Shown here one piece after another: positions 7,208-64,000 of a stretch of 64,000 nucleotides of DNA. The position numbers were made by a program, and so were the translations under genes. The stretch is from a virus. How positions within the stretch are numbered: position 1 is the stretch's first letter; each line of letters begins with the position of its first letter. The DNA lies in IMG/VR virus record IMGVR_UViG_3300024219_000002, positions 1,525 through 65,524 of that record; one strand, written 5' to 3'. Under the pieces are notes generated by a model. It made no database searches. It was given only the letters and a program-made list of their open reading frames with translations, and was not told the origin of the DNA.

Positions 7208-7211
7208 CGGG

Positions 7212-39503: not shown

Positions 39504-39513
39504 AAGTATTAGG

Positions 39514-39545
39514 GTCGTGCCCCCGCTCCACAACGGGGGCACGAC
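39514..39545. terminator. Perfect 12-bp hairpin after the capsid gene (attenuator/stabiliser)
   Basis: GTCGTGCCCCCG-8nt-CGGGGGCACGAC; no strong U-tract on the coding strand. Confidence 0.6.
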
Positions 39546-39566
39546 GTTGACCCACCCACAAACCAC

Positions 39567-40805
39567 CTAGCTACCGATGCACTGGACGCATTCCAGATCA
39601 TCCACGCAACGACGGAAGATAATCAGACGCCCGTATTTGGGCATGATCGGCTCCGGCGCGTGTTTGTATTCAGCGAAATGGATGCCCAGCTTTTCCAGCG
39701 GGTCAAAGCAGACGTTACCGCTGGTGATCTTGTTTCCACCCGTGACAAATTGCCATTCACCGAGGTATGACTTGGGCGACCAATGGGTGTCCCCACCGGC
39801 TGAATTCAGCGGAGGAATGACAAGGCTCTTAAACACATACGGATTGAGCACCCGAACGCCTTCAAAGTCAGCCGCGCGCCATTCCGGGTTGATCTTGACG
39901 CCATCGCCCTTGGTGATCGTCGCATCGTCAATCCACGTCGGAACACGGACGTACGTTGAACCATTCCAGTTATAACGCGGCGGGAACTGCGTAACCAGAT
40001 GCCGGAAGTTCCCAATGGTCTTGGCCGCACCGAGGCGTTTCAGGATGGAACTGCCCTGCTCTCCCTGCCCCATCTGCGCGTAGCGGAAATCCAGACGCGA
40101 CTCGCTGTTGAGCTTCAGGATTCGGGCGCTGTGCTTCAACCCGATCTGGAGCGTGAACACCGGGCCGGCTTCACCCCAGTCAACCCATCCGTCGTCATAC
40201 GGACCTTCGGTGGCGCCTTCTTCCTCCAGAATGGCCGCGGTTTCATCGAGCATTTCCTGCGTCAGCTCGCACTCGCTTCGGGTCAGTCCGCTCAGGGTAG
40301 GACCCGCGCCCGGGAATCCAGACCCGCCGCCGTCGAATATCAGCTCATTGTCGGCAACCGCTTTTGGAACGAGATGATCGTAGATGGCTGCCAATCGGTT
40401 TTCAATCGTCCAGGTGACGTTTTTCTTCATCGCCCGCATGTAACCGTCAAGGAACTTGGTGCGTGCCCAGTCGAAATACAGGTTGTCTTGACAGATCGTG
40501 GGCCCCTTCCATCCGAATTGCTCCGGGCGGAAGGTTTTCTCACCGAACCCAACCGGCACGGCGTTGAACGTGCTGGCGCAGTTGTCAGCCTGATTGACGG
40601 TGATCGGTATGAAATCCGGCTCGTCAGTCGTGGGAAGCGACCGAGCCAGTGTGAAGGTCGAAAGAACCGTGCCCTGCCCGGATGGGTAGGTGCCGCGTTC
40701 AATCATGTTGTAGAAGGACGGTTTCGGGGATGCTTCAAAACGTAGTTCCTCGACGAAACTCTCTGTGTGACGCTTCATTGCGTCGAAAGGTGTTGGACAT
40801 GCCAT
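39567..40805 (-). CDS. Major capsid protein
   Basis: 412 aa downstream of the scaffold-like gene; own strong promoter and trailing hairpin; fold not verifiable by eye. Confidence 0.7.
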   Translation of the reverse strand: MACPTPFDAMKRHTESFVEELRFEASPKPSFYNMIERGTYPSGQGTVLSTFTLARSLPTTDEPDFIPITVNQADNCASTFNAVPVGFGEKTFRPEQFGWKGPTICQDNLYFDWARTKFLDGYMRAMKKNVTWTIENRLAAIYDHLVPKAVADNELIFDGGGSGFPGAGPTLSGLTRSECELTQEMLDETAAILEEEGATEGPYDDGWVDWGEAGPVFTLQIGLKHSARILKLNSESRLDFRYAQMGQGEQGSSILKRLGAAKTIGNFRHLVTQFPPRYNWNGSTYVRVPTWIDDATITKGDGVKINPEWRAADFEGVRVLNPYVFKSLVIPPLNSAGGDTHWSPKSYLGEWQFVTGGNKITSGNVCFDPLEKLGIHFAEYKHAPEPIMPKYGRLIIFRRCVDDLECVQCIGS

Positions 40806-41066
40806 AAAATTGTACGGTTAAACGGTTAAACTTGTACGCAACAAAACATGGGTCCACACGGACACAGTAATTGCGTTGGTTCCCGTGGCGCTAAAACAAC
40901 CAGAAGATGGTTGTTTTCTACGCGGGCATGGCGCTAGTTCCGGCGCCGACAACCGTACCACAGTCGGCTAGCATCAGTTCAACATGCGGATTGTGACCCG
41001 CAACGTCATTTTGAAGTGCTGATCTTACGCTATGGGGAAGGTAGGACTGAATTGGCGGGATGTCAA
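40806..41066 (-). promoter_or_regulatory. Capsid promoter plus ~225-nt structured 5' leader
   Basis: TTGACA-17-TACCTT (41066..41038); hairpins at 40893-40917, 40933-40972, 40986-41001. Confidence 0.65.
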
Positions 41067-41402
41067 GGATTGTTCCACAGCGATTGTTCCACGGTGCAGT
41101 TCCAAATGATGCTGGCGGCAAAACCACACCACCTGCAATGGCTTGTCATAATCCGGGTGATGCATCTCAACGTCCAATGACCCGCAAACCAAGCATGGCT
41201 GCATCTTCAATTTACCGCGATCCCGATAAACGTGCGCATAACTGCGACAGTTATTCTTTTTGCGCTGGAGTTTGGTTAGTGGGTGGGATTTCCGCCAAAT
41301 TTGCATGTGCTTGGCATGACAAGCCACGCAATATCTGCCGCCCTTTCTCCGAGGTTTACCGCATTTGCACAGAGTGGATTCCACGACTGTAGTGTTCCAC
41401 AT
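41025..41402 (-). CDS. HNH-like nuclease
   Basis: CLVCG..MHHPDYDKPLQVVWFCRQHH. Confidence 0.8.
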   Translation of the reverse strand: MWNTTVVESTLCKCGKPRRKGGRYCVACHAKHMQIWRKSHPLTKLQRKKNNCRSYAHVYRDRGKLKMQPCLVCGSLDVEMHHPDYDKPLQVVWFCRQHHLELHRGTIAVEQSLTSRQFSPTFPIA

Positions 41403-41451
41403 CTACACAGGCTCGGTCAAGCATTTTGCGGTAAGGCAGGAATGAGAATTG

Positions 41452-42006
41452 TCAATCTGATATACGAACGCCTGTCGCATAATCATTGTTCAGCGGATAA
41501 GGCGTCGCGTCACCTCGCAGGTAAAGCGGGTGGGCTGGCGAGCCGTCCTTGTTTTGTTTCAGGCAATAAAGGTGCGGAAGTAGCGCCATCACCTGCTTGT
41601 CTCTGCCCATGTGGTTGCCGTCCTTGCCCCACGCCGCGATTACGATTCCCGCGCCTTGCGAGAGTGTTTTGAGCGTGCGGTCATTGTCCGGCCCGATTGG
41701 GTCTTTTGCGGCCATCATGTCTTTCGGCTGAGTCGCACGGAACGCAAAGAGGTTCACCATGCAGAGTCCGCCGTAGTTCCACCGCTTCGCGTAGCCAACG
41801 CATTTGCGGATTGTTGGGTCATCTCGCGTCTCGTCCGCCGTTGATGGATTCAATCCCACGAACATGCAGTATGGTGCATCACACCATCGCCGCCACAGGT
41901 CGTATCGGTAGAGTCGGCACGGCGAGAGAACCGCTGAACAAGGCGCTGCATGGACCGCCGCATGAGCGCCCAGCGCGAGTTCGAGAGTCATTGGTGCGGC
42001 GTCCAT
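41452..42006 (-). CDS. DUF1643-family protein (cassette A1)
   Basis: YRYDLWRRW..FVGLNPSTA..DDPTIRKC..NLFAFRAT..AWG..HPLY. Confidence 0.85.
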   Translation of the reverse strand: MDAAPMTLELALGAHAAVHAAPCSAVLSPCRLYRYDLWRRWCDAPYCMFVGLNPSTADETRDDPTIRKCVGYAKRWNYGGLCMVNLFAFRATQPKDMMAAKDPIGPDNDRTLKTLSQGAGIVIAAWGKDGNHMGRDKQVMALLPHLYCLKQNKDGSPAHPLYLRGDATPYPLNNDYATGVRISD

Positions 42007-42023
42007 GAGCTTATTCGTTAGGG
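41933..42023 (+). repeat. attC site A1
   Basis: GCTGAAC-aaggc-GCTGCAT...ATGAGC-ttattc-GTTAGGG; CCGCTGAAC pairs with GTTCAGCGG at 41488. Confidence 0.88.
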
Positions 42024-42048
42024 CGCTTAGTCACTCCGCGCTCCGTGT

Positions 42049-42348
42049 TCACTTTCCTTTCGGTCGTTTATCCATCCCCTTCTCAGTGAGAATAGCCGCG
42101 AGGTCGTCCACATGCAGGCAGTCACACATACACGCTCCGGCTGGTTGCTGCTGGATAGGCGCGATGTGGCCGTTGCAGTAATCGTTTCCCGGAGTCGCAT
42201 CGTAGAGGACTCCGACCGCTGTGATTACAGGCCCGTCCGTTTGGAGCTGGACCACCTTGTCTCCGTTCTTTGCTTCTCTGCCGTTTCTGTAGTGCATAAT
42301 TTGACGCTCCCTAACAAGTTGCTGAAGACCGACGGCGGGAGCGCCCAT
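42049..42348 (-). CDS. Hypothetical protein (cassette A2; alternative start 42297 MHYRNGREAK)
   Basis: Conserved-looking HYRNGREAKNGD..CNG..CLH motif. Confidence 0.7.
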   Translation of the reverse strand: MGAPAVGLQQLVRERQIMHYRNGREAKNGDKVVQLQTDGPVITAVGVLYDATPGNDYCNGHIAPIQQQPAGACMCDCLHVDDLAAILTEKGMDKRPKGK

Positions 42349-42419
42349 CAGTTTCCAGTTTCGGTTTGCAAACGAAAGTCATTGGTCAATCGCCGCCGCG
42401 GCTTAGCGCGTTGTTCTGC
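42309..42419 (+). repeat. attC site A2
   Basis: CCCTAAC-aagtt-GCTGAAG...CTTAGC-gcgtt-GTTCTGC; R'' pairs with GTTAGGG (42017). Confidence 0.88.
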
Positions 42420-42420
42420 G

Positions 42421-42885
42421 TCATTTCCAATCGCCAGGGCGCTGCGTTTCCCCCTTGCCGCAAATGACGCACTCTCGATAGCGATTATCGTCAAGTCCAG
42501 TTGTCAGTCGCGGAGAAGAGTGCCACTTGTGAAACCCTTTGGCAGCGCAATATGAGCCGTTCTCGACGAAGTTCACAATGGAGACCCCATTCGTCGTCCT
42601 GAATGCACCTTTATCGTCGTACGCGCGCAGGGTGTTTGTTTGTGCCGTCCACAATTGATTCGTAAACCGGGAGGCGTGGGTGTTTGTGTTAAATGGCTGA
42701 TAGGGCACTGGAATTGTTTTTGTGATTCTTCCGTCTGCGCTTATCTCGCAAACAGCGACCGGCCCTTTCCATCCATCATAACTGTTGGACCAGACCATAC
42801 TCCAAGTTTGTGCGTTGATGCAGAACAAGCCGATGCAGGCGACGGCCAGAGCCGTCGCAGTTCCGAGTGTGAATTTTAATGTCAT
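42421..42885 (-). CDS. Exported protein (cassette A3); signal peptide encoded by the attC
   Basis: MTLKFTLGTATALAVACIGLFC lies largely within attC A3. Confidence 0.65.
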   Translation of the reverse strand: MTLKFTLGTATALAVACIGLFCINAQTWSMVWSNSYDGWKGPVAVCEISADGRITKTIPVPYQPFNTNTHASRFTNQLWTAQTNTLRAYDDKGAFRTTNGVSIVNFVENGSYCAAKGFHKWHSSPRLTTGLDDNRYRECVICGKGETQRPGDWK

Positions 42886-42927
42886 AGCTTTTGGTCGTCA
42901 GGCCGCGCCTGATCTTTTTCGTTAGGA
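42820..42927 (+). repeat. attC site A3
   Basis: GCAGAAC-aagcc-GATGCAG...CTGATC-tttttc-GTTAGGA; R'' pairs with GTTCTGC (42413); R' overlaps the scaffold stop codon. Confidence 0.88.
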
Positions 42928-44013
42928 TGGCCTTCCACTCATCTCCGCAGCAACCTTCTCAGCAAACGTCATCTTGTGGCCAGTCCCGGGAGCACCTTGG
43001 CCAGCCATGGACGGCGTTGACCCTTGCATCTTGGCGATGGTTTCCTTGGCTGCGGCGAGTTCGGATGACACCGCCTTGAGTTGTGCAAGGAACTCTGGCG
43101 CTGCGCTGGCCCATAGCGCGGCTTCTGCCTTTTCCGCATCATTCTCCAGACTGCCATCGAAAATGGCCTTGGCGACGGCAAGGCGCTCGTTTACGCCCTT
43201 GTTCCATGTATCGTCCCCTTCTTTGGTCTGAAATACTGGAATCCCAGCCTTCGAGTCCTGCGCTTTAGCGATAACGTCATCGAACGTATTGGATAGGGCG
43301 GTTTGCCGTTCCTGCTGCTTTTTGGTGCGCTCTTCACCGATCTTGGACAGTGACTCTTGAGCCTTGGACAGATCGCCTTGGCGCTCATTCAGGATGGCTC
43401 GCACTTCCCGGTTTGCCAGAGCAATATCGGCAATCTGGAATTCGGCCATTTCTGCGGTGAGTTCGGCAAGGTGTTGGCGCTTTATGTCCGAATCTGGAAG
43501 TTGCAACACCTGCATGAACTTTTCCGCTGTGTCCGCTGGAAGTGAGGCTTTTACGGCATCCAGCCGTTTCTGGTACTTGGCGTGAAACTCAGGCGAGATT
43601 TCGACCGCCACCTGCTCGAACATGCCCTTGTATCGGTCGCGCTCATCAGTGATCGTTTTTATGAGTTCGGCGTTGTGTTTGGGTTGCTTCTTGAGTTCTC
43701 CAAGCTCCTTCTCGTACTCCTTCAGCTTTGGCTCGTATTCGTCCACCTTCTTCTTAAATTCGCTGGCGGCCGTCTTTACGCGCTTCCAGTCCTCGGACTT
43801 GGGAGAGCGTTTGCCCGATTCGATTTCCTTGTCCACGGATTCAAAATCAGGCGTGGCTGGCTTGGCGGGCGATGGCTTGACCGCATCGGCCGGTTTTGGA
43901 GTGGCCAATCCCGGCTGTCCCTTCTCTGTGGCTGCGGCTGCGTCCGCTTCCTTCAATTCCTGAGACATGAGTTGTTGAAACGACGGGGGCGGTGTGGCTG
44001 TGGCTTCTGGCAT
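42922..44013 (-). CDS. Capsid scaffolding protein (putative)
   Basis: 363 aa, charged coiled coil with Pro/Ala-rich N-terminus; between portal and capsid. Confidence 0.7.
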   Translation of the reverse strand: MPEATATPPPSFQQLMSQELKEADAAAATEKGQPGLATPKPADAVKPSPAKPATPDFESVDKEIESGKRSPKSEDWKRVKTAASEFKKKVDEYEPKLKEYEKELGELKKQPKHNAELIKTITDERDRYKGMFEQVAVEISPEFHAKYQKRLDAVKASLPADTAEKFMQVLQLPDSDIKRQHLAELTAEMAEFQIADIALANREVRAILNERQGDLSKAQESLSKIGEERTKKQQERQTALSNTFDDVIAKAQDSKAGIPVFQTKEGDDTWNKGVNERLAVAKAIFDGSLENDAEKAEAALWASAAPEFLAQLKAVSSELAAAKETIAKMQGSTPSMAGQGAPGTGHKMTFAEKVAAEMSGRPS

Positions 44014-44037
44014 AGGTTTTAGGTGTTGGCTGAGAAT

Positions 44038-44286
44038 TTACTGAACAGATTCATAGGTCGCCAAAAATATGTCCGGTTTGCATGGGTACAATTCGCCTTT
44101 GACGCCACGAATAAGCCAGTCTCCTTTTTGGCCAGTCATTGTCCCTTCGAGCGTGGCAACCATGAACTCCGAACCGTCATTTTTGATGATGACTTCAGGC
44201 GATTGGAACATGGAGTTGTCATCATTGAGGTTGTGGCCTTCCCACTGTTCCGCTTCTATGATTACTGGCTTCTTTCTGTATTTCAT
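44038..44286 (-). CDS. Conserved phage protein (KYRKKPV...YPCKPDIF family)
   Basis: MKYRKKPVIIEAEQW..TLEG..GDWLIRGVKGELYPCKPDIF. Confidence 0.85.
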   Translation of the reverse strand: MKYRKKPVIIEAEQWEGHNLNDDNSMFQSPEVIIKNDGSEFMVATLEGTMTGQKGDWLIRGVKGELYPCKPDIFLATYESVQ

Positions 44287-44293
44287 GGTGGTT

Positions 44294-44668
44294 TTATCTT
44301 TTCCTGGTGTGCTCTTGTGGCGGTTCAAACGTGGCTTCGAGTGGTTTGCTGGCTTTGATCGGTTTCGTCATCGCCTCAAGATTGTTGATGCAAAGTTCGT
44401 AACCCTCGCATTTCGCGTTGTGAACCACCCTGTCGGTTGGGCTGATTCCTACTGGTGGAAAAATGCTGTGAACGGGATGCGAATTACGCAGCACGTCAAT
44501 TTGCGCTCGATACGTCAGGTTGCGCGCGAGGGTGATGGACTCTGCCACCATCTGATCCTGCTTCCTCCATTCGTCGAGCGTCAGTCGCCATGCCTCGCGC
44601 TTCTCATACACCGGCTGGGGTGCTGGTGATGGCTTGAACAGATTAAGCAGGCGATGAAATAAGTTCAT
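44294..44668 (-). CDS. Hypothetical head-module protein
   Basis: 124 aa, helical, upstream of the scaffold. Confidence 0.55.
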   Translation of the reverse strand: MNLFHRLLNLFKPSPAPQPVYEKREAWRLTLDEWRKQDQMVAESITLARNLTYRAQIDVLRNSHPVHSIFPPVGISPTDRVVHNAKCEGYELCINNLEAMTKPIKASKPLEATFEPPQEHTRKR

Positions 44669-45650
44669 ATTGAGGAATCACAGGCTCAGTCAGTTTCACC
44701 AATTCTTTGTGTGGCACTTCGATCCAAGCTGAGTTCAAATCGTTTACGCCAAGTGTTATCAGCCATGTGCCGTCCCGGATGATTGCGCCGCATGCGAACA
44801 CGCACGCCGGCTTCTTATCATCCCACGGATCGAACTTGCTACCAATCAAAATCGGCTTGGGGGTCATTCGCTTTATCTGGAATGGCTGGGTTGCCTCGAA
44901 CGCACAGGCGCCGATAGAATAGCGACGTTTCTTGTTAATCCACGGCACGGAGCTGTGATAGAAAGTCCAATACTCATTCCCCACACGGACTGGCGGTGTC
45001 CCGCCGCGTGGCTCACCGTAAATCCAATCCGGGTGCATGGCGTGCGTCGTGTAGGATTTTCCCGGTTTCAAATCGTCATCCAGCGGCACGACCACATGAG
45101 GATAAGTCGAGTAAACCATGTGCAGCCTATTCTCGTGAAAGAACCAGAGCCAGTTTTTCTCCATGCCGACATTTCCCAGGACATCTTTGCGATTGTTCCC
45201 GTAATGAACGCTCACCTGTCGGATGGCCTGCCATTGATCGTTTAACACGCTCAAGGTTTGATGCGCCCGACTCCATCTCTTGGCGCCATAGATCAGGAAC
45301 GTGGTCGTTGAGACGTACGTGTAACCGTTGTGCCAAATGGCGCGAGGGTCTTCGTAATGCTGGTCAGCGAACGACTTCAAGAATTTCAGCGCATACCCCT
45401 TGATCGGCGTTTTATCTTTCATCCTGAACGCCACCACGTCGTTGAATCCCAGGTTGTCATTCCAGTTTCGAGCGCGGCGAGTCACCAACCACAGGCCGTC
45501 CGGTCGCTCAACAATTCCACAGTTGAAGAAACACACATTGTCCTGCTTGGCCCGACCGAAGTCGAAAAAACCACAGTTAAATTGAGTCTGCTCCAGAATG
45601 CTTGGCGGCTCTTGCTCAATGGTTAGCTTGATGGCAGTCAGGATATTCAC
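44643..45650 (-). CDS. Five-bladed beta-propeller glycosidase/phosphorylase-like (GH130-like)
   Basis: FNCGI, EDPRAI, EKNWLWF, RGGTPP, VFACGAI, TLGVND motifs. Confidence 0.75.
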   Translation of the reverse strand: MNILTAIKLTIEQEPPSILEQTQFNCGFFDFGRAKQDNVCFFNCGIVERPDGLWLVTRRARNWNDNLGFNDVVAFRMKDKTPIKGYALKFLKSFADQHYEDPRAIWHNGYTYVSTTTFLIYGAKRWSRAHQTLSVLNDQWQAIRQVSVHYGNNRKDVLGNVGMEKNWLWFFHENRLHMVYSTYPHVVVPLDDDLKPGKSYTTHAMHPDWIYGEPRGGTPPVRVGNEYWTFYHSSVPWINKKRRYSIGACAFEATQPFQIKRMTPKPILIGSKFDPWDDKKPACVFACGAIIRDGTWLITLGVNDLNSAWIEVPHKELVKLTEPVIPQYELISSPA

Positions 45651-45709
45651 ATTTCCACAAGTCGTTGGATTGCAAGTGAAGTAGTCACGAAATAACAGAT
45701 TGGAGTTTG

Positions 45710-46333
45710 TTAATCACTGTTCGGCATTTCTACGTCGCTGGCAATTTCGTTGCCCCACGACGCCCAGCCGTGCCGTTTCCGCCGGGCAAACATTTCGAGA
45801 TACGGGCCGGGAGATACAGACTCCACGACCGTTTGAAATTCTTCGGGCTTCTGCGAGTGCCGGCCACGAGGCCAGCCCCACCAGTTCCGGTCACATCGGT
45901 TTTTCCACGACAGCTTGCCACGGCGACAAAACAGAATCGGCTCGACGCACGGCACGAACGCGCCGCCGAGTCCAAGCCCAATCGGTTGCTTGAGCCAGTA
46001 GAGCATCGTTGACGGCTCGAAGCCCCAAGCGCGGGCGATGTCATAGGTCGCTTCGATGTAGCTGTTGATTGTCCAGATGTAGCAGTGAGCATCTTTGTCA
46101 GCCGGGATTTTCAGCGCGGCGATTTGCTCCACGCTCATCGTCGGATATTCTAGCGGCACACTTTTCAGGACGCGCTCTTGAGTTCCGAAGCCTTGGCTTC
46201 CGGGACTTTCGAGGCGGTTCACTTCCCACGTCGGATCAGCTACGACACACCGAAATGCCGAACAATTCGATGGAGAGAACGGCGCGATTGCGTCTCTCGC
46301 GAAGTCGAACGTCATGGGCGCGCCGTCTCTCAT
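45710..46333 (-). CDS. MT-A70-family adenine methyltransferase (cassette B1)
   Basis: VVADPTW, YPTM, AWGF, HSQKPEEF, LEMFAR..GW..WGNE. Confidence 0.88.
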   Translation of the reverse strand: MRDGAPMTFDFARDAIAPFSPSNCSAFRCVVADPTWEVNRLESPGSQGFGTQERVLKSVPLEYPTMSVEQIAALKIPADKDAHCYIWTINSYIEATYDIARAWGFEPSTMLYWLKQPIGLGLGGAFVPCVEPILFCRRGKLSWKNRCDRNWWGWPRGRHSQKPEEFQTVVESVSPGPYLEMFARRKRHGWASWGNEIASDVEMPNSD

Positions 46334-46347
46334 CTCAGTCGTTACCC
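46257..46347 (+). repeat. attC site B1
   Basis: GCCGAAC-aattc-GATGGAG...CTCATC-tcagtc-GTTACCC; GAAATGCCGAAC pairs 12/12 with 45719-45730. Confidence 0.9.
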
Positions 46348-47415
46348 GGCCAGCGCCAGCCCTCGGGTTGTCGAGCAGCTTTCATCGGACAGTTTCAGAT
46401 AGTCGGCGTTTACGTCGTTGAGCCACGCCCGCCGTCCGTTGGCGATGGCTTCATGCCCGGTAGTTCCGCTGCCCGCGAATGGGTCAGCCACAAGGTCGCC
46501 GGGATTCGACCATGAAAGTATCAGGTCGCGGGCCAGCCATTTCGGCATCATCGCCGGATGGTTGAGTCGCTCGCACATATCCTCTTGGCCGCGAGTTTTC
46601 CCGCGCCATACGTTGCCGCGCATTCCGTACTCGGCGGTGAGTTTCTTTGAGCGCACGGACTTCGTGCCGTCGCGTTCTGTGTAAGTGTTCACGCCGAGAT
46701 TTCCCACGCACCCGGCAGTTGCGTTTTTCTTGTCCTTGAGCGGGTTGAAGCAGCGAGGCTGTCCCTTCGACATCACGAACACGTACTCGAAAACTTGGTG
46801 GTATCGCACGCGCTCCGGGTGACTGAAGTTCAGCTTCTCGTAGATCATCGTGTCGTGGACACGGAAGCCGCATTTCGCGAGGTGGATTTTCTGTTTGCAG
46901 CTTGTGAGCGTTTCAGAGCCGTTCACCACTTCATCGCCGACGTTCCAGCACAGCACGCCACCATCGCACAGCACTCGGTACAGTTCGCGAGCCGTGCCTT
47001 CAAAGTCCCACGAGTGCCCGCCATACGTGCGCAGGTTGTCGTACGGTGGACTTGTCACCACGAGTTGCGCGCAGCCATCCGGCATCTCCGCGAGCGCAGC
47101 CACAGAGTCTTTATTCGAGAGCGTTAGACAATGGCTAGCTAATCGTCTTTCGACATTCTGATACCACACGTTAGCCCGCTTATTCCATGCGGTGAGAGCA
47201 GACATTCCGCTATTGCTTCTGAACACGTCTGATTCCGCACCACATACGATGCAGTTGACCCGCTCGGAGCATTTGTCGAGTCGGAGCTTTGCCGCTCCAC
47301 CGCAGAACGGGCACGGAAGCGGGCTAACCATGCGCTGAAGCGCAACCGGAGGCTTGCTTTCAGCCTTTGCGACCACGGCTTGCTTGCAATCGGATGTCGC
47401 GGTCGCGTCACTCAT
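46342..47415 (-). CDS. N4/N6 DNA methyltransferase fused to a Lar-like Zn finger (cassettes B3+B2)
   Basis: PCPFCGG..CIVCG..AWNKR, then VTSPPY, HPA, DPFAGSGTT. Confidence 0.88.
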   Translation of the reverse strand: MSDATATSDCKQAVVAKAESKPPVALQRMVSPLPCPFCGGAAKLRLDKCSERVNCIVCGAESDVFRSNSGMSALTAWNKRANVWYQNVERRLASHCLTLSNKDSVAALAEMPDGCAQLVVTSPPYDNLRTYGGHSWDFEGTARELYRVLCDGGVLCWNVGDEVVNGSETLTSCKQKIHLAKCGFRVHDTMIYEKLNFSHPERVRYHQVFEYVFVMSKGQPRCFNPLKDKKNATAGCVGNLGVNTYTERDGTKSVRSKKLTAEYGMRGNVWRGKTRGQEDMCERLNHPAMMPKWLARDLILSWSNPGDLVADPFAGSGTTGHEAIANGRRAWLNDVNADYLKLSDESCSTTRGLALAG

Positions 47416-47435
47416 GGCTGACCTTTGCGTTGTGC
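47322..47435 (+). repeat. attC site B3 (imperfect right arm)
   Basis: GGCTAAC-catgc-GCTGAAG...GTTGTGC; AAGCGGGCTAAC pairs 12/12 with 47170-47181. Confidence 0.75.
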
Positions 47436-47698
47436 TGCGCGCGGTCGTTAAGTTCTTGTGCCAGTGCGTCCCATCTATTTCGGAAGTGAGGATGTTGATG
47501 CTCCCACGCCTCCATAAACTTTAATGACGAATACCCGCATGAGTCCGCCCATATTTTGTGCAATTCCTGGCCTGTTAACGGCGCAGCACAACAATTCCCT
47601 GATGCCAACTTCGCTCCGCTTGTCGGCACAGTTACGGTTTCGACATGCGGAAGTGCGTGAGGCATTCCATAGTCTGGGTATTCTGCGCTCAGTGGCAT
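47408..47698 (-). CDS. Hypothetical protein (cassette B4)
   Basis: Start inside attC B4. Confidence 0.6.
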   Translation of the reverse strand: MPLSAEYPDYGMPHALPHVETVTVPTSGAKLASGNCCAAPLTGQELHKIWADSCGYSSLKFMEAWEHQHPHFRNRWDALAQELNDRAQHNAKVSHE

Positions 47699-47714
47699 AG
47701 GTCAGTCGTTAGCC
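47586..47714 (+). repeat. attC site B4
   Basis: GCACAAC-aattc-CCTGATGCCA...TGGCATAGG-tcagtc-GTTAGCC; 12/12 pairing with 47429-47440. Confidence 0.88.
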
Positions 47715-48091
47715 GACTCTTGCGTGGCGGCACAGTCAGCAACCATCATGCAGAAGTTGGCGACATCGGCGCACTCATCCGCCAGTTCTTCGGCGTCCTT
47801 GAAGTCTATGCGGTCATCGCTGCCCTGAGTGAAGCACTGTTGCACTTCTACCGTTTCATCAAGGATGCGCTCAACTAGACTCCACGGGTCATCTTTCAGC
47901 CATCCATCTCGGTCGCCTTTATGTCGGTTCTGCGAGAGCTTCGCCTCCATCCGCGCCGCGAATTTCAGCACATGAAGTAGCGTCGGGGAGTCGGCTAACA
48001 ACCGCATGGAGTCCAACGCGGCGAGCGTTTCTGATTTTTGAGTGTCGGTTTGCATGGATTGGGATTCAGGATTTCGCGCCGCGTGGCTCAT
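47702..48091 (-). CDS. MazG-like / all-alpha NTP pyrophosphohydrolase-like protein (cassette B5)
   Basis: KLSQNRHKG..W..ETVEV..ECADVANFCMM. Confidence 0.65.
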   Translation of the reverse strand: MSHAARNPESQSMQTDTQKSETLAALDSMRLLADSPTLLHVLKFAARMEAKLSQNRHKGDRDGWLKDDPWSLVERILDETVEVQQCFTQGSDDRIDFKDAEELADECADVANFCMMVADCAATQESAND

Positions 48092-48105
48092 GCGGAGCGT
48101 TGGAC
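47993..48105 (+). repeat. attC site B5
   Basis: GGCTAAC...CATGGAG...CTCATG...GTTGGAC; 12/12 pairing with 47708-47719. Confidence 0.88.
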
Positions 48106-48350
48106 TGACGCCTTCGTTTGGTGATCTCTTGGAGTATCAGTGTGCAGGCAGAGCCGCTAATAAAGTTTACGCTCCCTACAATAACCGCCCCGAATCGCTC
48201 GTTATCTACATGGTCGAATGCGAACCACGCGACTCCGATGAGGCTTTGGAAAAAGAAGAATAATATCAACAGTTCCCACACAGCCCAACCACTTCTTGGA
48301 GCGGACGTGCTGGGCGCACTCAGTTTTTCCGTAACGTCTGGATTGTTCAC
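48066..48350 (-). CDS. Two-TM membrane protein (cassette B6)
   Basis: GTG inside attC B6; two hydrophobic segments. Confidence 0.6.
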   Translation of the reverse strand: MNNPDVTEKLSAPSTSAPRSGWAVWELLILFFFFQSLIGVAWFAFDHVDNERFGAVIVGSVNFISGSACTLILQEITKRRRQSNAPHEPRGAKS

Positions 48351-48386
48351 GGTTTTCTTTCCACGCCGCTCAAGGCGGCGTTCGGC
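48283..48386 (+). repeat. attC site B6
   Basis: GCCCAAC-cactt-CTTGGAG...CTCAAG-gcggc-GTTCGGC; 8/9 pairing with 48099. Confidence 0.85.
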
Positions 48387-48637
48387 CAACTTTGTTCTAT
48401 GGCGGCATCGGCGAGAGCGAAGCCGTCGAAGTGGTCGAGTGCGCTTGCATTTTCCGCATCGAATCCGGCAGTGAAAGCGGCATCTATGATTCGCGCGATT
48501 TCCTTTTTGAGAGTTTCTTTGGCAGTGGACGAGTTGGCCGAACCAGTCGCTGAACCCGCAACTGGAGGCTCGCTCTCAGGTTTGGCGAATCCGCTATCCC
48601 ATTTTGCCGCTGCCTGCATTTGTTTCATCGTAGTCAT
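48347..48637 (-). CDS. Hypothetical protein (cassette B7)
   Basis: Start inside attC B7. Confidence 0.6.
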   Translation of the reverse strand: MTTMKQMQAAAKWDSGFAKPESEPPVAGSATGSANSSTAKETLKKEIARIIDAAFTAGFDAENASALDHFDGFALADAAIEQSWPNAALSGVERKP

Positions 48638-48673
48638 TCGACGCCTCCAGTGGGGTTAGCTTGGTCGTTAGTC
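48537..48673 (+). repeat. attC site B7
   Basis: GCCGAAC-cagtc-GCTGAAC...GTTAGC-ttggtc-GTTAGTC; 12/12 pairing with 48380-48391. Confidence 0.9.
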
Positions 48674-48925
48674 GGCGTGATACCACTCGATGAAGGCAAC
48701 GAAACACACGAGAAAAATTCCTAGGCCAATTACCCCAATCAGCATCACCCATCCATGCAGCACCCAAACCAAGAGGAGCAACGCAGCGGCAATAGCCATT
48801 ACGATTCGGTTCTTGCGACGGCGACGACTAACAAGGCGCTGGACACGAGCCGGAGGCTTGCCTCCGGGCGGACCTTGGTAGTCTTCAGCTACGAACTGTT
48901 CATCTTCTTCGGATAGGTATTTCAT
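48668..48925 (-). CDS. Two-TM membrane protein (cassette B8)
   Basis: ATG and GGAGG RBS inside attC B8; stop TAA lies in the previous R'. Confidence 0.65.
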   Translation of the reverse strand: MKYLSEEDEQFVAEDYQGPPGGKPPARVQRLVSRRRRKNRIVMAIAAALLLLVWVLHGWVMLIGVIGLGIFLVCFVAFIEWYHAD

Positions 48926-48961
48926 TTTGTCGCCTCCGGTCGGTCAGCTTTGTCGTTATGC
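48826..48961 (+). repeat. attC site B8
   Basis: GACTAAC-aaggc-GCTGGAC...GTCAGC-tttgtc-GTTATGC; pairs with GTTAGTCG (48667). Confidence 0.9.
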
Positions 48962-48971
48962 GGTTTAAGAT

Positions 48972-49175
48972 TCATGTCCATCTCGTCAGGCAGAGCCACA
49001 GAAACCCATACTTACAGCAGGGACACTGAATGAAGTATCCGCCTTGCGATCCATCGTCCCATGAGGCTTCCTCGCGGTTCACGGAGACGCGACAGTTGCA
49101 GCGTTTGCACGTCCCGAAAAGAACATCTTCATTCTTCGGCGCTTTGCCTTTACGTATGATTTTCAAACTCCGCAT
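48972..49175 (-). CDS. Small Zn-ribbon protein (cassette B9)
   Basis: CKRC..CPCC; ATG lies in the R'' box GCATAAC. Confidence 0.65.
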   Translation of the reverse strand: MRSLKIIRKGKAPKNEDVLFGTCKRCNCRVSVNREEASWDDGSQGGYFIQCPCCKYGFLWLCLTRWT

Positions 49176-49440
49176 AACAAATCGGTGCAGGCACTTTCAC
49201 TGTGAGTCCGAGTGCGTGGATTCTGCGCACCAGTTCACGGAAGTTGCCGCGTTGCTTTGAGACAATGAAGGATACCATTACGGCGTTGTCCAGCTTCCAC
49301 AGGTATCCGTCATATTTGTCGCTCGTAAAGCCGAGGATTTTTGCTCTTTCAGAGTCGAGATGAATGATCCCTGAGTCGAGATGAATGATCCCTGCTTTAG
49401 CTCCGCGCTTCCGGGCTTCGTCAATCTCGTCCTCAGTCAT
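49150..49440 (-). CDS. Hypothetical protein with a 7-aa tandem duplication
   Basis: GIIHLDS x2 (21-bp duplication 49352-49393); runs into the truncated attC. Confidence 0.55.
   Translation of the reverse strand: MTEDEIDEARKRGAKAGIIHLDSGIIHLDSERAKILGFTSDKYDGYLWKLDNAVMVSFIVSKQRGNFRELVRRIHALGLTVKVPAPICYAEFENHT
49172..49194 (+). repeat. Truncated attC (R''-L'' only)
   Basis: GCATAAC-aaatc-GGTGCAG; CCGCATAAC pairs with GTTATGCGG (48955); no right arm found. Confidence 0.7.
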
Positions 49441-49448
49441 AAAGTCTA

Positions 49449-50063
49449 TTACCTTTTCCTGAAAAAGGTGGAAGTTGATTCCTTCCCCGTGATCGTTTCC
49501 AGCCTGTCGCACCACTTTTCCGTGAATCGGACAGCGGTTTGAGTGCTGTTCCAATTTGAGTCATCAAGCAAAACGATCCCGCCTGACCTAATTTTTGGCA
49601 ACCACAGGCATACGTCGGACGTTGAACTCCATTCCGAATGAGTTCCATCTATGTGCAAAAAGTCGATGGGCGAAGGGATAACCTTGCTGGCGTCCAGACT
49701 GGTCATCCTGAGCACCCTAATGTGCTTGGCCATTCCCGAGGCGTGAATGTTCCCGATGAACATATTGTAGATGCCCTCCAGATTAACAACGTGCGACCAC
49801 CATTCGCGTGCGTCCGCTTCCGGCACGTCCACCAGGCAGTCGGACACCTGCCACGAATCCACTCCGTAAATGATTCCGTCGCCTTTCTTTGACAAACCTA
49901 TGGCGGCAGAGATGAGTGATTTGCCGGCGAACACTCCTATCTCGACGCAGGTCTTGCAGTCCTCTTGCATGACTTTCTCGGCAATGGCAATGCCCTTTTC
50001 TGGATCGCACCAGCCTTCGCGTATGCGCTCAAGTTCCGCAGTGATTTCTTCGTGGAGTGTCAT
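49449..50063 (-). CDS. Class I SAM methyltransferase (Methyltransf_24-like)
   Basis: VEIGVFAGKS, GVDSW, IDFLHIDGTH, GGIVLLDD. Confidence 0.85.
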   Translation of the reverse strand: MTLHEEITAELERIREGWCDPEKGIAIAEKVMQEDCKTCVEIGVFAGKSLISAAIGLSKKGDGIIYGVDSWQVSDCLVDVPEADAREWWSHVVNLEGIYNMFIGNIHASGMAKHIRVLRMTSLDASKVIPSPIDFLHIDGTHSEWSSTSDVCLWLPKIRSGGIVLLDDSNWNSTQTAVRFTEKWCDRLETITGKESTSTFFRKR

Positions 50064-50476
50064 GTCAAGCTCTCCAGTCCCATCGTCTTGATCTTCTCAA
50101 TGCAGGAGTTGCAGAAATACCAGTTCCTATCTTTGCTGTAAATCGTCGCTTCTCCCTTGCACATTTCGCATTGATACTTTCGGTAGTCGGAGAAAGTGGG
50201 TGGACTTTTAGACAACGCCTCGGTCACGGCTTCCGAAATGGTGGCAATCTCTTGAATCGCGCGAGCCTTGCCAGCGTCGTAGCCGGCCATGATGGAGTTT
50301 GAGAACCAGCCGATCATGCAACCTTCGTCGGTCGAAATGTTTGGATTGGCCCGCGCTGAGTACACAAAGGCGATAGCCCACGCACGCGCGTCTATTGACT
50401 TTGGAACAGACTTCCCATCGTTGCCGAGGATTCGGAATTTCTCGTCAACCGTCATTTCAAAAGGTTGTGTTGCCAT
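50060..50476 (-). CDS. Hypothetical protein
   Basis: DARAWA..MIGWFSNSIMAGYD motif plus C-terminal CxxC pairs. Confidence 0.65.
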   Translation of the reverse strand: MATQPFEMTVDEKFRILGNDGKSVPKSIDARAWAIAFVYSARANPNISTDEGCMIGWFSNSIMAGYDAGKARAIQEIATISEAVTEALSKSPPTFSDYRKYQCEMCKGEATIYSKDRNWYFCNSCIEKIKTMGLESLT

Positions 50477-50513
50477 CGCGCAGATTTATTTGATCGTCTT
50501 CATCCATGGCGAT

Positions 50514-51113
50514 TCAGAGTTGCCTGTGTTCTACCAGAACATCGCCAGTATCCCGGGCATGATTCGCCCACATCCCCTTGAGAAGTGAGACTCGCCAGCC
50601 ATGGTTGTCCACAAGGAGCTGCCTTAGCCCAATGTCAACTGGGTCAGGCAGCATGTGTTGTCCGAACTTCTCCCAGCATCGGTTTGGAACGATTGGCAGG
50701 ATGCAGCACGATCCGCTCGGATACTTTGAAGGGCCAAGCTGGTAGAATTCTGGTTCAACCAAAACTCCATCCGTCGGGATTATCGCCAACTGGTTGTCCC
50801 ATCCAGGTTCGCCCTCGAAGGTGATGTCGTCATTCGTGCAAACAATCCAGCGAGCATTGCAGTGAAGCGCCATCTCCGTGTAGAACTCGGAAAGCGAGCT
50901 GTATCCCTTATTGCGCGGTCCAATGAGCACTCGGGCGTCGGGATAGATGCTGTAAATCAACGGCACCACACCAAGCGTCGGGTAGTCATCGCCGTCCAGC
51001 CTCAGACAAATCTGGACGTTTTCAGCACTGCTTGTCGCCGCAACGGATTTGATCGTCTCAATCAATCTTTCGTGCCGGCCGCGGCTGGCGATCAGGACTC
51101 CACAGAGTTTCAT
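50514..51113 (-). CDS. GT2/GT-A-like glycosyltransferase
   Basis: VLIASRGR, LDGDD, WIVCTNDD. Confidence 0.7.
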   Translation of the reverse strand: MKLCGVLIASRGRHERLIETIKSVAATSSAENVQICLRLDGDDYPTLGVVPLIYSIYPDARVLIGPRNKGYSSLSEFYTEMALHCNARWIVCTNDDITFEGEPGWDNQLAIIPTDGVLVEPEFYQLGPSKYPSGSCCILPIVPNRCWEKFGQHMLPDPVDIGLRQLLVDNHGWRVSLLKGMWANHARDTGDVLVEHRQL

Positions 51114-51814
51114 GCTTTTTGTTTTGTTGCGAACAGAAGCCCGCCCGCCATGCTTTTGTCGTATTTTGGCCTTGGAATTCCACTGCCGGTAATCTCCACC
51201 GAGAATCCTTGTCCTCTCAACGCATCGGCATAGATGTGGCCGTCATAATTATGCCATTCCATGCAAAGGATGCTGACATGGCTTAACCAGTCCAAGTCGT
51301 TCTCGAAAATTTCCTTTTCTGCTCCCTCGCAGTCCAGTTTGACTACGATTGGGTTTTCCGATCCGAAGGCTGCAAGAACTGTTTGAATGACGTACTGCAT
51401 TGTAACGCACACGACCGGAACTGGCGCCAGTCCATTCATTTTACATGACGAACTCCCGGCAGGATGATCTAGTCGGTGGTAGAATTCTATTTTCCCATTA
51501 GTTGAGGAAATTGCCACATGGTTAAGGTCGTAAGCATAACTACCAAGTTCGATGTTGTTCAACGCAACATTTGCTTTAGCAACTTGAAAGTTGTCAACCG
51601 ACGGCTCAAATGCGATCACCTTACATTGTTTGTTGAGATGACAGATAAGCCCGAATTCACCGTAAAACGCCCCCACATCGATTACGGTTGATCGGTCTGG
51701 AATCATCCCCAATCGGTAGCAATCCTCATCAACTATCTCTCGAATCACTTCCGCGGCATGTGGAAGATTCAAAAACTTCGACCGACCATAGTTAATCGTT
51801 GGTGCTAAGCTCAC
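51110..51814 (-). CDS. FkbM-family methyltransferase
   Basis: VIDVGAFYG, IAFEP, VKLDCEGAE, MEWH. Confidence 0.88.
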   Translation of the reverse strand: MSLAPTINYGRSKFLNLPHAAEVIREIVDEDCYRLGMIPDRSTVIDVGAFYGEFGLICHLNKQCKVIAFEPSVDNFQVAKANVALNNIELGSYAYDLNHVAISSTNGKIEFYHRLDHPAGSSSCKMNGLAPVPVVCVTMQYVIQTVLAAFGSENPIVVKLDCEGAEKEIFENDLDWLSHVSILCMEWHNYDGHIYADALRGQGFSVEITGSGIPRPKYDKSMAGGLLFATKQKA

Positions 51815-52695
51815 TCGAAGTCCTTTATCGGTTGTCCGTCAAACCAATCATGGCTCGGTTGACCGCCGTGATGTGGGAACGGCTCTCCCGCCAGAACCTT
51901 TGCGCGAATCTCGCGGAGGTTGATCGGATGCTGAGATTGCTTCTGTCCGTAAAATCGTTCGATGGCCTTGTAATCCTTCGCCTCCTTGTCGTGATCGTAA
52001 CGACGTTTGGAAGTTTTCTTCATCTCTGGGCCGCACTCGCCGGGCGTCCTGTCCTGCAAGACTCTCATGCGTGGATCGTATTTCATCTCGAATCCGTTCG
52101 CCCTCAGCATTGAACCAAACTGGGTATCCTCGGCGCCAAGTCCGTCCAACAGCTCCTCAAACCCATTCACCTGCAATGCCCATTCCAGAGGCAACGCAAA
52201 GGTGCATCCGAAAAACCAGTGATGCTTGAAGTGTTCCGCGCCTCCGGGTCGGTCGCGGTGATCTTGGCCCATGAGTTGGCCGTAGTTTTTGACGACGCCG
52301 TTCTCGACTTTCAAATCCGAGTGTTTGCTATAAGAACCGCACACGGAATAATTGCCAGCCATTGCCTCGCGCACGGAGTCAAGCCAACCTGGATTCAAAA
52401 CGCAACGGTCGTCGCAGAAAGCGATCCAGTCAGTCTTGCATAGGCAAATGGCACTATTAAGGGATGAGCTTTTACTCCACCACTCATCCTTTGTGAGACG
52501 GTGCGGACCAGACCACACCGTCGGCTTAGGCGCCACATGAAGAACTCCATCCGCTATTGTTCCTAAAGCGCGAGAGCTGTAACCGTCCACGAAGATGATC
52601 GGGGCATCATTCCCGCCTTGGTTTCTAAGTGAGTCAAGAAACCATCGGAACTTCGGCTGCTCCCGGCAGGAAATAAATGCGGCGGTTAAACTCAC
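51811..52695 (-). CDS. GT2/GT-A-like glycosyltransferase
   Basis: IIFVD, N.AI, WIAFCDD, VNGFEE..GAEDTQFG. Confidence 0.82.
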   Translation of the reverse strand: MSLTAAFISCREQPKFRWFLDSLRNQGGNDAPIIFVDGYSSRALGTIADGVLHVAPKPTVWSGPHRLTKDEWWSKSSSLNSAICLCKTDWIAFCDDRCVLNPGWLDSVREAMAGNYSVCGSYSKHSDLKVENGVVKNYGQLMGQDHRDRPGGAEHFKHHWFFGCTFALPLEWALQVNGFEELLDGLGAEDTQFGSMLRANGFEMKYDPRMRVLQDRTPGECGPEMKKTSKRRYDHDKEAKDYKAIERFYGQKQSQHPINLREIRAKVLAGEPFPHHGGQPSHDWFDGQPIKDFE

Positions 52696-63017: not shown

Positions 63018-63021
63018 CGGG

Positions 63022-63994
63022 TCATTGTGGGACGAGTCCTTCGGGAGTCCACTTGAATCGTTTGCCGGATGTGGTCGCGGGTGGTTGTTGGGGAGATACA
63101 CTTGGAGCGGCGGAATTTGTCAACCGCTTCCCAGTCTCGGGATTCCATCCCTTGCTCTCCAATCTGATCTTCAATTCGTTCATCAGATTCGTCCGGCTTC
63201 TTCCAAACGCAGTTCGCGTGTCGCCGGTCGCCAGCTCAACCTTGTGGTCGGCGTATGCCTTTAGCTCTTTTGCTGTTTCCGCGTCGGGCGTGTTCTCCTT
63301 CATCGCCTCATGCTTGGCAACCGTCATGCGCTCGGAAACCTTGCCCTCGTCGCCTTCGGTGGCGACCGTAACATCCTTGGGTTCGGTGTCTCGCAACTTC
63401 CCGAATTCAACCCGCTTCTCAACCAGGCGTATCAGCGCCGGGTCGGCTTTTGATTCTTTGAGTGAGCGGAGATATTCCGCATCCTTCTCCAATGCCCCGG
63501 GACTCCAGTTGGGATTCGCAACCTTGTAATCGTAATACTCAAGAGCCAGATCATGCTTGGCCTGCAACAGCTCCTTCGCCGCCTCATTCTTGGGATCAAT
63601 CATCCTGAGTTGGTTCTGGAATCGCTGCTCGATTTGATCCTTGGTTGCCTCACCGCGCAGACCAAGTAATTCCTTGGCCCCTTCAAGGCGTTGCGCGATG
63701 TGCTCCTTGGCAAATTCAGCTCTGGCGCCGATTAGTTCCTTTGAAGCCTCCGTTCTGGCGCCGATTAGTTCCTTGCCTTGAGCAACCTTATCAATGAACT
63801 GAGTGAACCTGCCAGTCTTAGGATCGGTCCAGCCTTGCACAACAGTTCCATCATCAAGAGTAATTGTTGCTGGAGTTGTGGTTGCCTTGGTGTGGTCTTT
63901 GTAATCGTCCAGAATCCCACTCCAGTTCGCCGGGTTCTCGTAAAGCGGCTTTCCATCCTCGTCCACCGCATACCATTTCGATGCAACCTTTGCG
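63022..63994 (-). CDS. Partial repeat copy of the 7212..8603 gene
   Basis: Same as 7212..8184; 5' end missing. Confidence 0.6.
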
Positions 63995-64000
63995 AACTGG

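Follow-up and report, generated by a model that had tools for sequence, protein, structure and literature searches.

Whether integron cassettes can be carried, as whole arrays, with their genes on the strand opposite to their attC recombination sites is the question raised by a 64,000-nt stretch of a soil phage genome (IMG/VR virus record IMGVR_UViG_3300024219_000002, positions 1,525 to 65,524), here called the window. Integron cassettes are taught as promoterless genes placed before their attC and read from the promoter Pc, and the strand selection of the integrase is explained as keeping the orientation of the cassettes. Reverse-oriented cassettes exist in chromosomal integrons, e.g., toxin-antitoxin cassettes with promoters of their own. 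A first-pass annotation, made from the sequence alone, described cassettes in the window in which all genes run antisense to attC and start inside it, and proposed a distinct class of phage cassette, expressed by read-through from phage promoters.

The analysis presented here supports this arrangement. With a probability of about 85%, the window, from a phage genome without an integrase, contains genuine integron-type cassettes in two clusters (attC-site clusters with no integron integrase, CALINs), with the cargo on the attC bottom strand and with start codons inside attC. Three cassettes were found at 41,489–42,921 (array A) and about nine at 45,720–49,2xx (array B), each with canonical boundaries: G/TT flanks the unit on either side, the 3′ end of its top strand is its own attC, and its start complements the R″ box of that attC. 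Read as phage mRNA, each attC lies ahead of its gene, and the sequence evidence supports that it provides the start codon, 13–37 N-terminal codons and, in some units, a Shine-Dalgarno sequence.

attC sites and cassette boundaries

Sites were located with a custom scanner that reads AAC, a 5-nt spacer, stem arms aligned from the spacer inward, a spacer of 5 or 6 nt and GTT (cut-off score ≥22); a MAFFT alignment of nine attC misaligned the right arms. At this cut-off nine sites were found in the 55,810 bp of unique genome, eight of them on the plus strand between 41,933 and 48,961 (the strong sites of Table 1), compared to a mean of 0.2 sites and a maximum of one in ten mononucleotide shuffles. 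Two weaker sites, attC B and attC A, were also assigned, and all ten have the plus strand as top strand. Set against the definition applied (R″ RYYYAAC and R′ GTTRRRY as imperfect inverted repeats, ~57–141 bp in total), R″ ended in AAC and R′ began with GTT in all eight strong sites, which were 91–137 bp long; one or two positions of several 7-mer boxes did not fit the strict R/Y consensus. The spacers (5 nt on one side, 5–6 nt on the other) were unpaired. Extra bases numbered 2–4 on the left (AAC) arm vs 0–1 on the other arm in six of the eight sites, whereas in two sites extra bases deeper in the stem brought the counts level (2/2 and 4/4). In all eight sites the spacer-adjacent extra bases were on the left arm, the first of them being G every time, which corresponds to C on the recombined strand. 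Folding of single sites with DNA parameters gave mixed z-scores (+0.85 to −2.87) that did not discriminate by themselves, and a search of the whole window with Rfam, which has no attC family, gave no match.

Five perfect 12-nt inverted repeats (GTT...AAC), 135–521 nt apart and each of a different sequence, tie the start of a cassette to its own R″ (Table 1). This is the signature of integron cassettes, since the R′ of a linear cassette is completed by its own first bases, which also complement the R″ of its attC. The complementarity in these five cassettes was exactly 12 nt, i.e., 5 nt past the 7-nt R box.

Three attC at 41.9–42.9 kb and seven at 46.3–49.0 kb, all on the plus strand and without a TIGR02249 (integron integrase) match, make two clusters when a cluster is taken as at least two attC on one strand within 4 kb and without intI nearby; the distance of 4 kb follows Cury et al. 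(2016; PMC4889954). For a solo cassette previously proposed at 21.5–22.1 kb, the GTT...AAC repeat was found (10/10 matching positions, 21635–21644/22122–22131), but the scanner gave no attC there, even at a score of 14. This repeat sits in the plus-strand early region.

Assignment of the top strand

The plus strand is supported as the attC top strand by three independent lines of evidence: the arm that carries the extra bases, the boundaries of shared cassettes and the position of an integrase. Extrahelical bases lie on the arm opposite AAC in the recombined bottom strand, and on the AAC arm in the top strand (Nivina et al., 2016; PMC5027507). In the control, Vibrio phage MK672802, which contains a chromosomal integron fragment with intIA and annotated cassettes, the extra bases of all attC were on the AAC arm of the gene-sense strand. 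By this rule, the plus strand of the window is the top strand, in accordance with the first-pass annotation, which had placed the extrahelical bases on the left arm.

Two other contigs, G006 and G009, share one cassette that is near-identical from the upstream R′ (G/TTAGCC) to its own R′ (G/TTAG) and unrelated outside. The mobile unit is thus the cargo and its right-hand attC, the same make-up that canonical cassettes have. Cassette I of the window (41488–42019) showed 88% identity to phage contig G011 over exactly the cassette span, with both edges at G/TT, and cassette C was 77–87% identical to another G011 cassette with the same R′ and R″ boxes; when G011 was compared to positions 38,001–52,000 of the window, matching was confined to these two shared cassettes. 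G/TT is the putative crossover point of these sites: homology between unrelated contigs ends there on both sides, and close DUF1643 proteins diverge directly after AAC (see below).

G011 contains a large terminase gene and at least ten chained attC, and it carries a complete integron. Its integrase (331 aa) scored 290 bits with TIGR02249 (cut-off 265), and the gene, 165 nt from the array, lies 5′ of it with respect to the top strand and is encoded on the opposite strand, which is the textbook position. The junction at the attI side, GTTAGAG, was complementary to the first R″, CTCTAAC. The cassette ORFs (open reading frames) and intI of G011 make up one co-directional block with intI last (L152, 5393–12017; L151, 5809–6804).

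Cassette genes and attC-encoded termini

A classical cassette has its ORF on the attC top strand, upstream of attC; here, the ORFs supported by Pfam or by codon score were found on the bottom strand, starting in attC. All codon-score-positive ORFs except one plus-strand ORF of 53 aa, and four of four Pfam domains (DUF1643, MT-A70, N6_N4_Mtase and Lar), were on the minus strand, as previously described. Ten of the eleven starts that the first-pass annotation had placed within attC were shown to be inside their own attC, which encodes 13–37 codons (the right-hand ends of the ORFs from 42006 to 48925 in Table 1); the eleventh, 49175, overlaps the R″ (49170–49178) of a decayed site with an unpaired right arm. 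The recurrent N-terminal motifs that had been noticed were found to be the left arm of attC read in two frames, and the ribosome-binding site GGAGG reported before 48925 is present and paired in the stem. The putative signal peptide of the ORF starting at 42885 was read by eye. The stops at 42922, 46342 and 48668 are formed, as claimed, by a TAA that is the last codon of the cassette, although this TAA does not come from the neighbouring R′ but from the cassette's own first three bases (TTA directly after the G of G/TT).

Domain cores start right after attC, at residue 33 for Lar and, for DUF1643, at residue 34 according to Pfam (~26 by alignment). Many DUF1643 homologues (153–160 aa) lack the 24-residue extension encoded by attC. 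At the other end, homologues that are 83–89% identical to the window protein diverge directly after PYPLN, i.e., after Asn173, encoded by the AAC of the cut site, and the C-terminal tail is thus read from whatever adjoins.

Judged from the reading frames, a cassette gene would end either on a TAA made of the cassette's last three bases in the direction of translation, or by crossing the cut site with AAC in frame and stopping a few codons into the next attC. Seven crossings in the window had AAC in frame, three ended on TAA and none was in the third phase. The 34 crossings in other phage arrays were divided in the same way (23, 11, and 0), whereas the bacterial control, for which the longest open bottom-strand frames were used, gave 24, 28, and 18. 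The first stop in the AAC phase overlaps the next start (ATGA or GTGA) in 4 of 10 attC of the window and in 16 of 30 attC of other phages. From the frame rule and this overlap we infer that attC may serve as a stop-start coupling linker. Free energies for attC folded in the mRNA sense ranged from −30 to −44 kcal/mol, and either the start codon or GGAGG was paired; in attC I, the start codon at 42006 was paired in the 5′ arm. Neither consensus promoters (7 found, 8.4 expected) nor terminators (23 found, 19.4 expected) were enriched.

Comparison with other phage and bacterial arrays

A pattern derived from the attC of the window, AACAAGNCGCTG...AGCTTNNTCGTTA, matched 11 other IMG/VR contigs. The same pattern also matched at least 120 bacterial contigs from many phyla, 41 of which had arrays of at least two such sites. 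The strand of a cassette gene was taken from the longest ORF that had ≥90% of its length inside the cassette, extended by 60 nt of slack on either side, and covered at least half of the cassette, and it was called only if this ORF was more than 1.3 times as long as the longest ORF of the other strand. By this rule, 61 of 109 bacterial cassettes were sense, 9 antisense, 12 ambiguous, and 27 had no such ORF; for the 22 cassettes of other phages the numbers were 3, 11, 5, and 3, respectively. The survey of gene and attC orientation that had been suggested together with the idea of a distinct phage class, made here with one attC pattern, thus showed an antisense majority in other phages and a sense majority in bacteria, and speaks for such a class.

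Four Pfam-supported ORFs were found in phage contigs G003, G001, and G007, all of them antisense (methyltransferases in G003 and G001, a PAPS reductase in G001 and a weak HNH match in G007), compared to none of six sense-strand candidates. A search with the G011 integrase detected six further viral contigs with intI relatives. In the intI-bearing L159 and L157, the Pfam-supported cassette genes (two ORFs) were on the intI strand, antisense to attC. Phage TJE1 (Qi et al.) showed one clear attC by scanner, in canonical sense position behind a methylase gene; thus, not every phage array is reversed.

Alternative explanations

The hairpins might not be integron sites at all, but attC-like stem-loops of a phage-specific kind that lie between genes and act as terminators, processing sites or translational operators. 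Their clear placement at stop-start junctions would suit this explanation, as would the lack of an Rfam match in the window and of an integrase in the genome. It is nevertheless very unlikely, because every tested attC feature is present (R″ and R′ boxes, 5/6-nt spacers, extra bases on one arm, appropriate length), the pattern recurs in the many bacterial contigs and arrays described above, whole units were exchanged between unrelated phages exactly at G/TT, one such array adjoins a true intI in G011, and terminator-like sites are not enriched. Genuine attC could still have been given the wrong strand, in which case the minus strand would be the top strand and the window would hold ordinary sense cassettes with genes starting in the attC of the upstream cassette. 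The hairpins are nearly symmetric, the links between start and R″ read alike on both strands, and the first extra base on the plus strand is G, compared to c, t or a at this place in the Vibrio control and in L157, L159, and L161. This explanation is opposed by the spacer-adjacent extra bases on the AAC arm of the plus strand in 8/8 sites (despite the two whole-stem ties), by a rule that was right on the Vibrio control, by shared cassettes made of cargo and the attC to the right, not to the left, and by the integrases of G011, L157, and L159, which lie on the side and strand expected if the plus strand is the top strand. Bacterial arrays read with the same pattern and rule were mostly sense. 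The distance from start codon to R″, calculated by hand from the coordinates, showed no constant phase, and an upstream attC could therefore not act as a generic N-terminus. That the plus strand is the recombinogenic bottom strand, which the first-pass annotation had named as fatal to its proposal, is thus contradicted at the sequence level by arm rule, shared-cassette boundaries and G011 integrase position, and a wrong strand is very improbable.

It could also be argued that the cassettes are genuine and antisense, but that the starts within attC are artefacts of ORF calling, translation beginning downstream of attC and the N-termini and the frame rule having no function. This would agree with domain cores that begin just past attC, with N-terminal extensions missing from many homologues and with an in-frame ATG (Met29) at the left edge of attC in the Lar-methyltransferase gene. 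However, the DUF1643 and MT-A70 genes, as read by eye, have no ATG, GTG or TTG between attC and the conserved core, the third phase occurred in 0/44 crossings compared to 18/70 in the bacterial control, and the ATGA-type overlaps in 16/30 attC of other phages are hard to explain without translation through the site. We give this explanation a slim chance.

Some findings weigh against two clusters of genuine antisense cassettes with starts inside attC. The TIGR02249 profile had no match in the whole 65.5-kb record, and the genome of the window has no complete integron (intI with the IntI-specific domain and attI beside the array). Contigs from two soil runs, which were short and of low depth, gave no joints indicating excision or insertion. 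The phage comparison contigs were found by a pattern from the window's own attC. The difference in sense vs antisense cassettes between bacteria and phages (Fisher p = 2e-6) is overstated by its p-value, as cassettes within an array are not independent, and the longest-ORF test is crude in GC-rich DNA, where 8 of 22 phage cassettes were ambiguous or without a long ORF. In attC J and attC C, the AAC-phase stop precedes the start by 40 nt or follows it by 23 nt, and the linker rule is thus not universal. Met29 of the Lar-methyltransferase gene as a possible alternative start, and the deviating first extra base, count in the same direction.

Features of the array region

The positions of all units are given in Table 1. 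"Scaffold" and "late operon" as labels were read by eye.

Table 1. Cassettes, attC sites and genes of the array region of the window (coordinates of the window; strand of cassettes and attC is that of the attC top strand).
Feature	Position	Strand	Description
Cassette I (array A, first unit)	41489..42017	+	Cargo is the minus-strand DUF1643 gene; own attC at right end. Homology 41488–42019 to G011 (L150), 88% over 535 nt, from G of R′ GTTCAGC to GTT of own R′. 9-nt repeat GTTCAGCGG / CCGCTGAAC ties 41488 to 41931
attC I	41933..42023	+	Strong; score 28, 16 bp, 0 mismatches; R″ GCTGAAC, 5-nt spacer, 2 extra bases in left arm, 6-nt spacer, R′ GTTAGGG
DUF1643 gene	41452..42006	−	PF07799, E 1.2e-45, residues 34–161; codons 1–24 in attC I; Asn173 AAC at cut site; last 11 codons from neighbouring sequence
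Cassette J	42018..42413	+	ORF 42049–42348 (−), 99 aa, no family; codon score 16.2
attC J	42309..42419	+	Strong; score 26; start 42348 in attC loop
Cassette H	42414..42921	+	ORF 42421–42885 (−), 154 aa, hydrophobic N-terminus
attC H	42820..42927	+	Strong; score 27; R″ GCAGAAC at 42820 complements R′ GTTCTGC at 42413; AAC-phase stop overlaps start as ATGA
Phage backbone block between arrays	42922..45719	−	Four genes; no attC by scanner
Backbone gene	42922..44013	−	Scaffold-like by eye; stop TAA is TTA right after G/TT at 42921
Backbone gene	44038..44328	−	
Backbone gene	44294..44668	−	
Backbone gene	44643..45650	−	Weak GH130 match
Cassette G (array B, first unit)	45720..46341	+	Perfect 12-nt repeat 45719–45730/46252–46263
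MT-A70 methyltransferase gene of cassette G	45710..46333	−	PF05063, E 3e-13; 25 codons inside attC
attC G	46257..46347	+	Strong; score 32
N6_N4 methyltransferase unit	46342..47170	+	PF01555, E 1.4e-31, residues 117–343 of ORF 46342–47415; own attC not recognisable; right boundary 47170 inferred from the 12-nt repeat of the next cassette
ORF of N6_N4 unit and cassette A	46342..47415	−	357 aa; stop TAA 46342–46344, first bases past G/TT at 46341
Cassette A	47171..47429	+	Lar-like zinc-ribbon part of ORF 46342–47415; PF14354, residues 33–81; perfect 12-nt repeat 47170–47181/47317–47328
attC A	47322..47435	+	Weaker; right arm decayed; left arm 76% identical to left arm of attC F
Cassette B	47430..47708	+	ORF 47408–47698 (−), 96 aa; perfect 12-nt repeat 47429–47440/47581–47592
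attC B	47586..47714	+	Weaker; score 18; DNA fold z-score −2.85
Cassette C	47709..48099	+	ORF 47702–48091 (−), 129 aa; perfect 12-nt repeat 47708–47719/47988–47999
attC C	47993..48105	+	Strong; score 26
Cassette D	48100..48380	+	ORF 48066–48350 (−), GTG start
attC D	48283..48386	+	Strong; score 22; GTG 48350 overlaps AAC-phase stop as GTGA
Cassette E	48381..48667	+	ORF 48347–48637 (−), 96 aa; perfect 12-nt repeat 48380–48391/48532–48543
attC E	48537..48673	+	Strong; score 34; GGAGG stem-paired; start/stop overlap ATGA
Cassette F	48668..48955	+	ORF 48668–48925 (−), 85 aa, hydrophobic; stop TAA is the cassette's own first three bases
attC F	48826..48961	+	Strong; score 28; GGAGG 8 nt before ATG, stem-paired
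Possible last unit K	48956..49240	+	ORF 48972–49175 (−); R″ CCGCATAAC at 49170–49178; attC decayed, right end uncertain

The possible unit K was assigned from a 9-nt repeat (48955–48963/49170–49178), which is not significant alone, as shuffles gave ~17 such pairs, and the scanner found no site there. The N6_N4 methyltransferase unit appears, from its sequence, to have lost its attC. In the 357-aa ORF, an N6_N4 DNA methyltransferase is joined to a Lar-like zinc ribbon across the boundary at 47170, with AAC in frame. The block at 42922–45719 was also considered as one large cassette; this was dropped, as neither an R″ complementary to its start nor an attC was found there. Three contigs from soil run X1 match positions 42245–42298 of the window, i.e., part of cassette J, and then continue into unrelated sequence; they may contain cassette J in another context.

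Genome and setting

The source record is 65,524 bp long and was rated complete by CheckV. The window repeats itself at an offset of 55,810 bp (1–8190 recurs as 55811–64000, position 635 for example at 56,445); the record is thus a permuted or concatemeric assembly of a genome of ~55.8 kb. The region was present in two soil metagenome DNA runs (about half of the sampled words). The long ORFs of the window are almost all on the minus strand, and sequence families name almost none of its structural genes; the large structural ORFs had no matches in PHROGs and Pfam. A 412-aa protein at 39567–40805, called capsid-like from its ESM Atlas look-alikes only, resembles phage capsid clusters there (TM 0.57–0.77). 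No relatives of it were found in IMG/VR (pattern search), in GenBank phages or in any of the ten pattern-matched, attC-bearing contigs searched (0/10).

When 17 window ORFs were compared to the comparison loci by tblastn, only weak methyltransferase matches and one homologue of the HNH-like ORF were detected. This ORF (41025–41402), cysteine-rich and HNH-like by eye, separates the capsid-like gene from array A; its relative, with 61% identity (L017, 12972–13271), is found in G005, a complete phage contig unrelated to the window. A minus-strand ORF (49150–49554) contains a perfect 21-nt tandem duplication (49352–49393) by which a 7-residue motif is repeated.

Discussion

Clusters of attC in phages were already known; the consistently antisense cargo and the putative translation of attC appear to be new. 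In phages, including virulent ones, Qi et al. (2023; PMC9892861) found 17 CALINs with methyltransferase cargo, and five out of six phage attC that they tested recombined with IntI1. The window resembles these phages in having attC clusters without intI in a lytic-type phage and DNA methyltransferases as cargo. It differs in that their arrays were called typical or as having divergent attC directions, and bottom-strand cargo and attC-internal starts are not mentioned in the available text of that report. Our search of the literature found no account of antisense cargo, attC-internal starts or phase locking in phage arrays, although the supplementary tables of Qi et al. (2023) may list orientations.

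The sites share attC architecture, G/TT crossover, complementarity of start and R″ and, in G011, the position of intI and attI with class 1 mobile integrons and the sedentary chromosomal integrons of Vibrio. Unlike in canonical cassettes, the gene is on the other strand, and attC precedes it in the mRNA and would be translated. A canonical Pc beside intI would give antisense RNA here, and the array of G011 is read toward intI. Reverse cassettes of chromosomal integrons likewise have an ORF antisense to the attC top strand; the Vibrio control has an annotated methyltransferase cassette on the reverse strand (MK672802, locus L012, 29527–30195). In bacterial arrays such cassettes are exceptions (9/70 decided cassettes), whereas the arrays of the window are wholly reversed and tightly chained, with no excess of promoters.

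ORF-11 couples translation across the attI1 crossover (review PMC8876359). Similar to ORF-11/ORF-18 at attI1, short frames in the window cross the recombination point in a fixed phase with an in-phase stop beside the next start. ORF-11/ORF-18 belong to attI, the top strand and the first cassette only, whereas the coupling in the window would act at every attC and on the bottom strand. In the inverted integron-integrase group (Treponema and others), intI is on the attC strand (Cury et al., 2016; PMC4889954). As in that group, intI and cassette genes of the phage arrays point one way; however, the intI genes of G011, L157, and L159 are opposite to the attC top strand, which is typical, and only the cargo genes are flipped.

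A possible mechanism can be outlined. The arrays would be transcribed within the minus-strand operon of the phage, and, in the mRNA, the hairpin formed by each attC would hide the start region. A ribosome translating the upstream gene may open this hairpin, terminate at the stop beside or overlapping the next start (ATGA/GTGA) and re-initiate. As the phase is fixed at the cut site, this coupling could survive the shuffling of cassettes. An integron integrase acting in trans, encoded by the host or by a co-infecting phage, would carry out recombination; G011, with its intI and two cassettes shared with the window, is a candidate for the latter. Insertion of cassettes at genomic sites outside integrons has been described (Loot et al., bioRxiv 10.1101/2022.09.11.507474) and may be the way in which the phage backbone acquired its arrays.

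The chances stand about even that phages keep a mirror-image integron system of their own, with a cassette pool largely apart from the bacterial one. The recombined bottom strand would then be the coding strand and attC a phase-locked stop/start linker, and in intI-bearing phages, where the array is read toward the integrase, transcription could switch recombination on.

In consistently antisense phage arrays with putatively translated attC, the cassette format is used in a second way, which provides integron biologists with a natural test of what attC can encode while still recombining. The arrangement, in which the 5′ end of the gene is joined to attC, also bears on the birth of cassettes. 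Such cargo may be mis-called by annotation pipelines built for sense ORFs; in the window it includes a DUF1643 gene, DNA methyltransferases and a Lar-like domain, and PAPS-reductase-like genes are found in related arrays. The findings point to a route by which unrelated phages may swap ready-to-express accessory genes.

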